In this document: positions 33,614 to 54,724 of the stretch, in pieces | Layout: each line of letters begins with the position of its first letter | Numbering within the stretch: position 1 is the first letter of the stretch | IMG/VR virus record: IMGVR_UViG_3300042446_001168 | Strand: one strand, 5' to 3' | DNA: 64,000 nt | Source: a virus | Notes under the pieces: generated by a model | What the model saw: the letters and a program-made list of their open reading frames with translations, nothing else | Told to the model about the DNA's origin: nothing | Database searches by the model: none | Translations under genes and position numbers: made by a program

Positions 33614-33698
33614 AATATTTTGATGGGTTTGATATTGCAGTAGTCATATCTATTTGTTCGATATTTGGAAGTATTATTTATAAAATAATAGGAATATC

Positions 33699-51807: not shown

Positions 51808-52107
51808 ATGGCCAAAATATCTATTGAACTAGATGAGGATAATGATTTTGGATTCTCTGCTGTCAGTGAAGATGACCTCAAATCAATGGAGCGGCAGCTT
51901 CAACAACAAGTTCATGAAAAAGAACAAGAATTATCGTTGACTTCTAAAGAGTATAAAGATAAACTAGAGGCTCTTTATAAGTTGATCATGCCACTACTAC
52001 TCAACCTAGCCAAGGATTCTGAAAAAGAGTATATACTCTGGCCTGACCGATCTAAGAAGATGAAAATTTTTATTGATAAAGTAAATAAGTTAGTAGAAAA
52101 TGATTAA
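51808..52107 (+). CDS. Conserved hypothetical protein
   Basis: DFGFSAV and PLL.NL....EKEYI.WPDR. Confidence 0.65.
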   Translation: MAKISIELDEDNDFGFSAVSEDDLKSMERQLQQQVHEKEQELSLTSKEYKDKLEALYKLIMPLLLNLAKDSEKEYILWPDRSKKMKIFIDKVNKLVEND

Positions 52108-52996
52108 CTACCTGGCATTGTTGGTTGCTATTGGATTGTCTGGAGTATCGGCCTACTTCTCAATCCTTGGACTGACAGCTATCTTTGCAGCATCATTCTG
52201 GCCTGTAGTTATTATGGGTTCAATGCTTGAAGCAGCTAAGGTTGTTGCTGCGTCTTGGGCCTTTCGGAACTGGTCATATGCACCGGCCAGTATTCGCTAC
52301 TACCTTGTTTCTGCCGTTATTACTTTAATGTTTATAACATCAATGGGTACGTTTGGTTACCTGTCCAAAGCACATATTGAGCAGTCAGCATCGGTTGGTG
52401 ATGCTGCCGCTCAGGTTGCTGTTTACGATGATAGAATCAAAGTTATAAACGACACCATCAATGCCAATCGTACACTCCTTAAACAGTTTGATGAAGCTGT
52501 TGACCAGGTGATGTCTCGTTCAACAGACTCTAAGGGAGCTGAGCGAGCTCTTCAGATTAGAAAATCACAGCAGAAAGATCGTAGTCGGATCATGGAGGAA
52601 ATATCAGCACTGCAGAAAGAAGTTAGCAAGCTCAATGTTGAGAAGTCTCCACTGGTATCGCAAGTTAGAAAAGTCGAGGCAGAAGTTGGTCCAATCAAAT
52701 ATATTGCCGAGCTTTTTGTTGATAAGGCTGATGATTCGTTTCTGGAAAAGACTGTTCGTTGGGTTATTATTATGATTGTAACAGTATTTGATCCGTTAGC
52801 TATTCTTTTGCTGATAGCAGCTAATATGGGATTGATGCGGCAGAGTCAAGATCGTAAGACATCCTCCCTGGCACAGGATATTACTAACAGCGAAGAGGAG
52901 TCAGAAAAGAGATTCAAGAAGCTACAAGAGTTGACTGGAAAGGCGAACCGTAGTAAAGTGACTATTGATAAGAACAAAATAAGGAAGATGACATGA
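52100..52996 (+). CDS. Membrane protein with coiled-coil domain
   Basis: Three N-terminal TMs, ITSMGTFGYLSKAH, EVGPIKYIA and VFDPLA. Confidence 0.7.
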   Translation: MINYLALLVAIGLSGVSAYFSILGLTAIFAASFWPVVIMGSMLEAAKVVAASWAFRNWSYAPASIRYYLVSAVITLMFITSMGTFGYLSKAHIEQSASVGDAAAQVAVYDDRIKVINDTINANRTLLKQFDEAVDQVMSRSTDSKGAERALQIRKSQQKDRSRIMEEISALQKEVSKLNVEKSPLVSQVRKVEAEVGPIKYIAELFVDKADDSFLEKTVRWVIIMIVTVFDPLAILLLIAANMGLMRQSQDRKTSSLAQDITNSEEESEKRFKKLQELTGKANRSKVTIDKNKIRKMT

Positions 52997-53895
52997 GTTT
53001 TTTAAAGGGTTTATTAAAGGAGTTAAATGATGAAAACACTTATCTGGCCAGTGACGGCGGTGGTAGTGCTGAGTTTGGTGGGTTTATTGATACTGGCAGC
53101 TATATTCTCAACGCTCTTCTCTCTGGTAGCATCTTTGGTGGCGTATCTGATAACAAGATTACTGCTTTTGCAGGAGAGTCCGCTGTTGGAAAGAGTTTCT
53201 TCGTACTTGGTATCGTTAGAGCCTTCCTTGACAAGAACCCAACAGCAATCGTCGTCTACTACGACACCGAAGCAGCAGTAACTAAGAAGATGATGTCGGA
53301 ACGTGGTATTGATGTTGAGCGAGTAATTATTGCTGAGCCAGATACCATTCAAAAGTTCAAGACTCATGCACTTAAACTGATAGAGGCGTATGAAAAGACT
53401 TCGGAGAGCGAACGTCCTAAGATGATGTTTGTTCTTGACAGCCTTGGTATGTTGTCAACATCCAAAGAAATGGAAGATTCTCTGGATGGCAAAGATACAA
53501 GAGACATGACCAAGTCTCAAGTAATTAAAGCAGCGTTCAGAGTGTTGACTCTCAAGCTAGCAAAGGTTAAAGTACCTATGCTAGTCACCAATCACGTTTA
53601 CGAGGTTGTTGGATGTCTTGATGCTAGTCAATGGATCAGGCTAGAAGATGGTACTCATAAAAACATTGTAGATATTGACATTGGAGATGTGGTTACTACA
53701 CTAGATGGCCCAAAGCCAGTTACAGAGACTTTTGAGTATACAGTTGATGAATATGTTGAGCTAACTTTTGAGGATGGTAGTGTGATTAAAGCTACTCCTA
53801 ATCACAAGTTCTTAATCGACGGGGTTTGGGTTGCAGCTGAGGATATCGTCCTCAATGATGAGGTCGTATCCATAGGCACGTGCGAACTCGTCTAG
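52993..53895 (+). CDS. uvsX: UvsX recombinase N-extein (207 aa) fused to split intein N-fragment
   Basis: IDTGSY, AGESAVGKS and LDSLGML; after VTNHVYEVVG the intein block A CLDASQWI and block B ATPNHKF follow, then a stop. Confidence 0.93.
   Translation: MSFLKGLLKELNDENTYLASDGGGSAEFGGFIDTGSYILNALLSGSIFGGVSDNKITAFAGESAVGKSFFVLGIVRAFLDKNPTAIVVYYDTEAAVTKKMMSERGIDVERVIIAEPDTIQKFKTHALKLIEAYEKTSESERPKMMFVLDSLGMLSTSKEMEDSLDGKDTRDMTKSQVIKAAFRVLTLKLAKVKVPMLVTNHVYEVVGCLDASQWIRLEDGTHKNIVDIDIGDVVTTLDGPKPVTETFEYTVDEYVELTFEDGSVIKATPNHKFLIDGVWVAAEDIVLNDEVVSIGTCELV
53614..53892 (+). mobile_element. Split intein N-fragment (93 aa)
   Basis: Cys1, I.IGD.V, TxxH block B and W..A..I...DEV end. Confidence 0.92.
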
Positions 53896-54045
53896 TACTC
53901 GCGCATCAACTTGGAGATGTCTTGCAGCCTCGGCAATTGAGAAGTAGTGTCTATTATTAATAATCACAATATTTTTCATGGTTATAGTATTGGCGTTCTC
54001 AGAGGATTTGATCTTCTTGAGCTTAGTAGTTTTTGACGTATCCAC
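53812..54045 (-). CDS. Antisense mini-ORF with NUMOD1/HTH-like motif (possible homing endonuclease remnant)
   Basis: INNRHYFSIAEAARHLQV; minus-strand TATAAATA at 54075-54082. Confidence 0.5.
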   Translation of the reverse strand: MDTSKTTKLKKIKSSENANTITMKNIVIINNRHYFSIAEAARHLQVDARVLDEFARAYGYDLIIEDDILSCNPNPVD

Positions 54046-54074
54046 AATGATTCCGTTTTAATTTACACACGCAT

Positions 54075-54082
54075 TATTTATA
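54075..54082 (-). promoter_or_regulatory. Minus-strand T4 late promoter
   Basis: TATTTATA on + strand equals TATAAATA on - strand, about 30 nt upstream of the antisense ORF. Confidence 0.6.
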
Positions 54083-54097
54083 AGAGCAGGAGTTACA

Positions 54098-54205
54098 ATG
54101 AAGGTAATATCGAAGAGGGTGGTCTCTGACCAACTAAAGGTATATGATTTTACGGTAGAGGATTCACATCACTACGTATTAGAAAATGGAGTTGTTTCGC
54201 ATAAT
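54098..54205 (+). mobile_element. Split intein C-fragment
   Basis: MKVISKR...[22 protein letters not shown] followed by Ser+1. Confidence 0.92.
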
Positions 54206-54634
54206 TCATATGTACCTACTAAGGAGATATCAGGTGGTTCGGGACTTAAATTTGCTGCCAGTACTATTGCAATGCTCTCAAAGAAGAAAGAAAAGGATGG
54301 CGATGGAGATGTTATCGGCAACCAAATTAAAATCAAGATGTACAAGTCACGACTCTCAAAAGAGAACCAAGATGCAACAGTGCTACTTACTTATAGCAAA
54401 GGTCTAGATCGATACTTTGGATTGTTGGATCTAGCAGAGAAGTACGAAATTATTAAGAAAGTATCTACGCGGTATGAATTACCAAACGGTAAGAAGGTAT
54501 TTGGTAAGGAGATAAACACCAACCCTGAATTATACTTTACAGAAGATATTCTCCAACAGTTAGAGATATGTGCAAAGAAGGAGTTCAGTTATGGAGTTAG
54601 TGAAGAAGTATCGAGTGATATTCCAGAGGAATAA
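54098..54634 (+). CDS. uvsX: Split intein C-fragment (36 aa) fused to UvsX C-extein (142 aa)
   Basis: Own AGGAG RBS; VYDFTV block F, SHN/S splice junction, then [19 protein letters not shown]. Confidence 0.93.
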
Positions 54635-54724
54635 TTCTATTGGATTCAAGTATATGTTCAATGACACTGAGCTAGCACAGTTTGTAGAGAAGTATAAAGA
54701 TTGTATTGTTGAGGTAATTGAATT

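Follow-up and report, generated by a model that had tools for sequence, protein, structure and literature searches.

A predicted split intein fractures the uvsX recombinase gene of a lake-water T4-like phage

How a phage might make a recombinase from a gene that is cut in two is the question raised by the uvsX locus of IMG/VR record IMGVR_UViG_3300042446_001168, which comes from a lake-water T4-like phage. In the 64-kb stretch of this record that we analyzed (hereafter the window), uvsX is spread over two open reading frames (ORFs) on the same strand. The first runs from the N-terminal part of UvsX (the N-extein) into the N-terminal half of an intein (IntN), and the second runs from the C-terminal half (IntC) into the remainder of UvsX (the C-extein). 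We consider it very probable that uvsX is here a fractured gene, and that its two products, of 300 and 178 amino acids (aa), are joined as protein into UvsX. The parts of the locus are listed below.

52993-53895, plus strand: ORF1, the uvsX N-extein and IntN, 300 aa (ORF reading)
52993..53613, plus strand: uvsX N-extein, 207 aa, ending ...VTNHVYEVVG (PHROG 97, UvsX-like, E-value 1.6e-59; residues 1-207 of UvsX in PDB 9GBG, E-value 2e-70)
53614..53895, plus strand: IntN, 93 aa, beginning CLDASQ, with Cys1 at 53614-53616, the motif TPNH and a TAG stop at 53893-53895 (TIGR01445; matches to the Npu DnaE and Mtu RecA inteins)
53896..54097, no strand: spacer of 202 nucleotides (nt) between the two uvsX genes (ORF ends)
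54088..54092, plus strand: AGGAG ribosome-binding site, 5 nt ahead of the ATG at 54098 (sequence)
54098-54634, plus strand: ORF2, IntC and the uvsX C-extein, 178 aa (ORF reading)
54098..54205, plus strand: IntC, 36 aa, starting MKVIS and ending ...NGVVSHN (TIGR01443; alignment to the Npu DnaE IntC)
54206..54634, plus strand: uvsX C-extein, 142 aa with Ser+1 as its first residue, plus the stop codon (residues 208-333 of PDB 9GBG, E-value 7e-44)

An initial annotation, made from the sequence before any database search, had UvsX breaking off at VTNHVYEVVG into a 93-aa IntN with Cys1 and TPNH that ends at a stop, and resuming about 200 nt later in an ORF preceded by AGGAG that encodes a 36-aa IntC, a serine and the rest of UvsX. 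These coordinates are as claimed, and the spacer measures 202 nt. Cys1 is residue 208 of ORF1 and directly adjoins the last extein residue, Gly207. The UvsX-like family PHROG 97 covers residues 1-207 of ORF1 and 36-164 of ORF2 at consecutive profile positions (21-227 and 228-329). The genes gp43, two small genes, uvsX-N, uvsX-C and gp41 follow one another, all on the plus strand, and the order gp43-uvsX-gp41 is the same in unsplit cyanophages, so that both parts of uvsX are in the original locus and orientation.

The exteins join without a gap. As the initial annotation had it, their union restores the sequence ...VVG-SYVPTKE... in a protein of 349 aa. UvsX in PDB 9GBG is covered in two consecutive pieces, the N-extein aligning to its residues 1-207 and the C-extein to 208-333, with no residue lost or gained. 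The motif NH-V-Y-x-x-[VI]-G-[SA]-Y-[VI]-P-T is kept in 32 unsplit uvsX relatives from IMG/VR, the majority of which read exactly NHVYEVVGSYVPTKE, and one of the unsplit genes (L032) is identical across the junction to the joined sequence of the window. Identity of the C-extein to cyanophage and Melnitz UvsX (60-63%) starts at residue 37 of ORF2. Residues 8-105 of the C-extein align with Escherichia coli RecA from about residue 209 or 210. The junction lies about 7 residues ahead of a conserved GG motif, which aligns to E. coli RecA 211-212, a neighborhood that we take to be the DNA-binding loop L2 region of RecA-family proteins.

Both halves of the foreign sequence are recognized as parts of an intein. 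The NCBIfam model intein_Nterm (TIGR01445) matches the isolated IntN with 27.3 bits (cut-off 24.5) and intein_Cterm (TIGR01443) matches IntC with 34.1 bits (cut-off 15.6). Among solved inteins, IntN matches Npu and Ssp DnaE, Mtu RecA and gp41-1, with a best score of 25.7 bits (E-value 1e-4), and the best score for IntC is 18.9 bits. The 36-aa IntC is aligned end to end onto residues 4-36 of the 36-aa Npu DnaE IntC, which places the break at the canonical position; both halves are homologues of those of Npu DnaE and gp41-1, whose break point is the same. A search for longer proteins that carry the window's intein unsplit gave no relevant match, only a DnaE intein at E-value 7.7e-4, which is weak negative evidence.

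The residues on which splicing would depend are conserved. Cys1 and T-x-x-H (T268, P269 and H271) are invariant in an alignment of 13 IntN homologues, and V15, D17, Y26, H35, N36 and S37 of ORF2 are invariant in an alignment of 28 homologues. The block F/G region of the window's IntC reads ...VYDFTV..HHY...SHN and is followed by Ser+1. The opposite charges noted in the initial annotation, an acidic IntN and a basic IntC N-terminus, are likewise present: net charge is -15 for IntN and +3 for the first 15 residues of IntC, with -1 for IntC as a whole. On these sequence features we assign the element in the window to the canonical class-1 split inteins, and we infer trans-splicing of the two UvsX halves. 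Because no solved intein matches it with more than 25.7 bits, it is plausibly a new orthogonal split intein.

The break is reproduced outside the window. A 2405-nt contig from run X2 spans 52900-54700 with 3 substitutions and a 1696-nt contig from run X3 spans 52900-54320 with 1 substitution, both with 0 insertions or deletions (indels). The stop at 53893 and the spacer are thus real features of the locus, found without indels in two other lake metagenome runs; neither contig holds one continuous ORF, and the two-ORF layout recurs in 17 related loci. Substitutions within the ORFs among near-identical contigs (53082, 54394 and 54343) are at third codon positions and synonymous. Of the words sampled from the 1-kb stretch around the break, at least 64% occur in each of 21 DNA runs from lakes or fresh water, dated 2018-2025; these runs carry 21 study codes, although the campaigns are perhaps not all independent and one run is marked as the possible source.

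The spacer was also compared with RNA families and with shuffled sequences. It has no meaningful match in Rfam, and its predicted RNA fold is no better than that of shuffled sequences (z-score 0.23). An intron or structured RNA in the spacer was rejected as a candidate on these grounds.

Seventeen IMG/VR viral contigs are split at the same site as the window (site a). Loci were sampled by peptide patterns and the counts are lower bounds. All 17 have two ORFs, each with its own start codon, and in most a GGAG/AGGA-like site lies ahead of the IntC ATG. Cys1, TxxH, the penultimate His, the terminal Asn and Ser+1 are present in 18 out of 18 split loci (the window and the 17 others). A database search with ORF2 retrieved 1780 short UvsX C-halves; among the best 120 clusters of C-halves, 41 have an IntC followed by SY.PT (site a) and 20 an IntC followed directly by SG (site b). 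The search with the IntN region retrieved 17 clusters, of which 7 are full-length (300 aa) at 96-99% identity and 1 is a 201-aa fragment at 96%; identity in the remaining 9 falls to 52%. Scanning metagenome contigs with IntN gave one distant locus only (35% identity).

In the phage collection the locus has no megablast match, no match to ORF2 spans IntC and extein together, and no record is split at the window's site; the matches to IntN there are only 33-39% identical. The Synechococcus phages ACG-2014e, S-H9-2 and S-WAM2 came up as possible intein-bearing relatives through tblastn matches that cover residues 1-290 of ORF1 and were rejected. Their uvsX genes are ordinary and unsplit (337-344 aa), and the extension of the match into IntN is spurious.

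Both intein halves are under purifying selection in the relatives. Ratios of nonsynonymous to synonymous substitution (dN/dS; pairwise Nei–Gojobori, nine pairs with unsaturated dS) are 0.03-0.28 for IntN and 0.04-0.15 for IntC, and those of the exteins in split alleles are similar (0.03-0.2). The low ratios indicate that the two halves are maintained by selection, which counts both against a pseudogene and against halves that serve only for docking.

The initial annotation was borne out in its reading of the locus as a split intein. It missed the content of the spacer, which is not empty and holds the remnant of an antisense HNH homing endonuclease gene. The two features in question are as follows.

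53812..54045, minus strand: HNH homing endonuclease remnant, a 77-codon ORF (BLASTP and alignment to the endonuclease of the related locus L008)
54075..54082, minus strand: TATAAATA box upstream of the endonuclease remnant, matching the T4-type late-promoter consensus (consensus match)

The spacer is longer in 16 of the 17 related split loci (556-695 nt, compared with 202 nt in the window), and its minus strand there carries a complete gene for an HNH homing endonuclease. The relatives' proteins are about 210-228 aa from an MKHKHH-type start (MKHKHHIIPKH.GG.DD..N......EHA.AH), and in some loci the first possible start codon is further upstream, giving up to 264 aa. The L008 and L049 proteins score above the cut-off of PF01844 (HNH), and the tails are NUMOD3 and I-HmuI NUMOD-like. 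The 3' end of the relatives' endonuclease gene overlaps the 3' end of IntN on the opposite strand, and the remnant does the same by 84 nt. Residues 16-73 of the remnant match the C-terminal NUMOD/helix-turn-helix (HTH)-like tail: in BLASTP it aligns to residues 166-224 of the 228-aa L008 endonuclease with 41% identity (E-value 3e-10) and shares the motif YFSIAEAAR. The 77-aa remnant has no family in Pfam, PHROGs or NCBIfam and was identified via the whole genes of its relatives. A DNA alignment places the loss at about 452 nt, which includes the whole HNH part. The window thus lacks the complete endonuclease gene expected of a fractured gene and retains a 3' remnant without the HNH motif. At position 53954, within the remnant, the window has T where contigs of the X2, X3 and X9 lake runs have C, so that its allele is the minority among the contigs compared.

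A 13-nt block, ATTATTTATAAGA, lies just upstream of the IntC start in both the window and L008, and reads TATAAATA on the minus strand. In L008 it is about 30 nt upstream of the endonuclease start, and several other relatives have TATTTATA at the equivalent place. The box is a putative late promoter. The window contains 11 copies of TATAAATA against 4.5 expected, nine on the plus strand and 2 on the minus strand, the other minus-strand copy being at 33675-33682. Sigma-70-like promoters in the spacer (53930-53964) are at background, with 11 matches in the region versus 5.6 ± 2.7 expected.

The endonuclease gene is also missing from another split locus. L049 (3309-3947) has a 629-nt gap with a 212-aa HNH gene, whereas L051 (3860-4000) has a 78-nt gap that retains the HTH tail only; in exteins and inteins alike, the two loci share 99% identity. 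With the gene present in one and absent from the other of two near-identical loci, the deletion in L051 is recent and arose separately from that in the window. By this comparison the endonuclease has been deleted independently at least twice (the window; L051 versus L049).

Comparison of exteins with inteins points to a mobile cassette. In an extein tree obtained by a quick search, the clade in which the window falls comprises 32 unsplit and 2 split alleles; the alleles closest to the window (87% identity) have no split, and the tree requires at least 3 changes of split state. Within the groups L046/L047/L048 and L052/L054, the IntN sequences are 84-88% identical and the N-exteins 61-80%. The inteins are more alike than the exteins that carry them, and the cassette has therefore been transferred between uvsX alleles that had diverged. 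For the window and L008 the pattern is the opposite, with inteins 55-67% identical and exteins 77-82%.

At site a there are two intein sequence types, with IntN halves 28-39% identical to each other. Type 1 begins CL.. or CM.. and has TPNH (window, L008, L046-L049 and L055); type 2 begins CAL.GT and has T[GE]EH (L036, L052, L054, L056 and L060). The distance between the two types is about that from either of them to the site-b inteins of Straboviridae, which suggests that the site was invaded more than once or that inteins moved between the two neighboring sites.

Some genes have both sites filled. In L060:3515-4423 (with an identical layout in L061) and in protein P0055, two inteins occupy sites 11 residues apart. 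The second ORF of L060/P0055 consists of a site-a IntC, an 11-aa middle extein (SYVPTKEMGGG or SLYPQDIMGGG), a complete, contiguous 132-aa site-b mini-intein and the C-extein, and NCBIfam models find in it two intein_Cterm stretches and one intein_Nterm. Maturation of such a protein would need one trans-splicing and one cis-splicing event.

We propose the following course of events for the window. The acidic IntN and the basic start of IntC would associate and form a HINT fold of about 129 aa. Cys1 would undergo an N-S acyl shift, Ser+1 would attack in the trans-esterification and the terminal Asn would cyclize, and ligation of the exteins would yield UvsX of 349 aa with its native ...VVG-SYVPTKE... 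sequence and the predicted junction peptide VPMLVTNHVYEVVGSYVPTK. The cassette would be a mobile element that originally had the antisense HNH gene lying between IntN and IntC and probably transcribed from a T4-type late promoter. The lineage of the window would then have lost about 450 nt of this gene, the HNH motif included. Because the HNH part of the endonuclease is deleted, the intein is probably stranded, yet it is probably still required for maturation of the recombinase.

Certain observations weigh against joining by an active intein. The Pfam matches, although real, remain under their gathering scores (Hint 25.8 versus 29.7; Intein_splicing 23.9 versus 35.8), and only the NCBIfam models pass. 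RNA evidence consists solely of metatranscriptome contigs from X22, which cover 53939-54139 (the spacer, the TATAAATA box and the IntC start) and 54231-54408 (part of the C-extein); their strand and RNA origin are not established, and DNA carry-over is possible. T4 uvsX mutants are viable, so that a defective uvsX is not necessarily lethal.

That uvsX is not strictly essential in T4 lends some credit to the idea that the gene is a decaying pseudogene, disrupted by the cassette and with non-functional halves, as does the truncation of the endonuclease gene. We nevertheless regard this as highly improbable. Neither ORF is interrupted and each has a ribosome-binding site, split alleles have dN/dS of 0.03-0.2 in their exteins, and the lineage recurs without indels in many lake metagenomes over 2018-2025 with synonymous variants in the ORFs. 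In addition, seven of its IntN clusters at 96-99% identity are kept at the full 300 aa, and the eighth is a 201-aa fragment. Equally, the break could in general be an assembly or sequencing artefact, or the spacer could be bypassed at the level of RNA or translation by a group I intron, read-through or hopping. We give this next to no credence, because the stop and the spacer are found without indels in contigs of other runs and studies, and because 17 diverged loci have the same two-ORF layout with their own starts and mostly GGAG/AGGA-like sites. Moreover, the spacer has neither an Rfam intron match nor an unusual fold, and its content is an antisense protein-coding remnant.

A third reading accepts the break and dispenses with splicing: the UvsX pieces would form a non-covalent heterodimer in which the intein halves only dock, with no peptide bond made, as in NrdA/mobE of Aeromonas phage Aeh1. 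T4-like phages offer documented cases of split genes that work without splicing, such as Aeh1 nrdA (cited in PMC2677866; PMC3045599). The complementary charges of IntN and IntC fit mere docking as well. Docking would not need the residues that serve chemistry alone (Cys1, TxxH, His-Asn and Ser+1), and these are invariant even though the IntN halves are 30-55% identical. A heterodimer would also leave about 129 foreign residues permanently in the loop region that we take to be L2. We therefore think a docked heterodimer very unlikely, and prefer covalent joining of the two UvsX halves by the intein.

A wider reading concerns what is left of the endonuclease gene. The antisense TATAAATA box and the in-frame NUMOD/HTH-like tail might be kept for a purpose and not be debris, which we consider unlikely. 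Late antisense transcription over the 3' end of IntN may time or limit production of the UvsX halves; alternatively, a small DNA-binding protein may block re-cleavage or re-invasion by related HNH endonucleases. If the remnant were retained in this way, trans-splicing of the recombinase would be a regulated maturation step and not the scar of a neutral parasite, with the splice site placed in what is presumably the L2 DNA-binding loop region. The intein sites 11 residues apart, sometimes both filled (L060, P0055), would then mark the loop as a hot spot.

Fractured phage genes with split inteins were already known, as the initial annotation stated. Dassa, London, Stoddard, Schueler-Furman and Pietrokovski (2009; PMC2677866) described gp41-1 to -9, NrdJ-1, NrdA-2 and IMPDH-1 from ocean metagenomes; the genes listed there are gp41, NrdA, NrdJ, IMPDH and others. 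UvsX is mentioned in that paper solely as an unbroken neighbor. The endonucleases found were GIY-YIG and Vsr-like only, with HNH predicted to be capable of the same. Like those fractured genes, the uvsX of the window belongs to the replication and recombination genes of T4-like phages, lies in two same-strand parts at one locus, and is broken between blocks N4 and C2 with complementary local charges. Like their gp41-7 locus, which is without an endonuclease gene, the window has no whole endonuclease gene. It differs from their set in its host gene, uvsX, and in its endonuclease, which is of the HNH type, antisense and in the window only a remnant.

Fractured uvsX genes, a second point that the initial annotation missed, are present in deposited genomes of cultured Straboviridae, namely Yersinia phage vB_YenM_TG1, Shewanella phage Thanatos-1, Vibrio phage EniLVp02, Salmonella phage SEA1 and Proteus phage Pm5461. 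What they have in common with the window is the host protein and a split mini-intein that has Cys1 and ends in HN; identity to the window's halves is 53-56% for IntC and about 36% for IntN. Their site, GG/TG, is 11 residues downstream of the window's VVG/SYVPTKE, and their +1 residue is Thr where the window has Ser. Their intervening gene is on the same strand (GIY-YIG in TG1 and Thanatos-1, an untyped homing endonuclease in EniLVp02 and a hypothetical gene in SEA1), whereas in the window's family it is an HNH gene on the opposite strand. Full-text literature searches found no paper describing an intein in UvsX. The insertion site VVG/SYVPTKE appears to be new; split uvsX itself is already in deposited genomes.

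The halves of the cyanobacterial DnaE intein lie far apart in the genome and have no endonuclease gene, whereas those in the window are 202 nt apart. With Npu and Ssp DnaE (PDB 4KL5, 4LX3, 2KEQ) the window's intein has in common class-1 chemistry, as judged by sequence, a 36-aa IntC, and an acidic IntN with a basic IntC start; with the gp41-1 intein (PDB 6QAZ) it shares Ser+1. Sequence similarity to DnaE and gp41-1 is only remote. A further parallel is nrdA of Aeromonas phage Aeh1, which is interrupted by mobE (Friedrich et al. 2007; Crona et al. 2011, PMC3045599; cited in PMC2677866) and resembles the window in being a gene of a T4-like phage cut by a free-standing HNH homing endonuclease gene. 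Expression of mobE is reportedly limited to late infection; Aeh1 nrdA has no intein, and its pieces are reported to assemble non-covalently. The break in the window is flanked by complete intein halves.

The locus adds UvsX, at a second site in the loop region that we take to be L2, to the replication and recombination proteins targeted by inteins. It places stages of a presumed homing cycle side by side: empty alleles, a split intein with a whole endonuclease, and a split intein with the endonuclease deleted. Protein engineering relies heavily on naturally split inteins that trans-splice fast, of which few have been characterized. The Cys1/Ser+1 split mini-intein family, with dozens of natural variants in two types, is material for orthogonality testing. 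The locus also supplies the HNH-type fractured gene that was predicted, and not observed, by Dassa et al. (PMC2677866). The understanding of split inteins is unchanged by this finding.

Directly 5' of uvsX (52100-52996) lies a gene for a 298-aa protein that has hydrophobic segments at its N-terminus, followed by a long, charged central part resembling a coiled coil. The stop codon of this gene overlaps the uvsX start (ATGA, 52993-52996).

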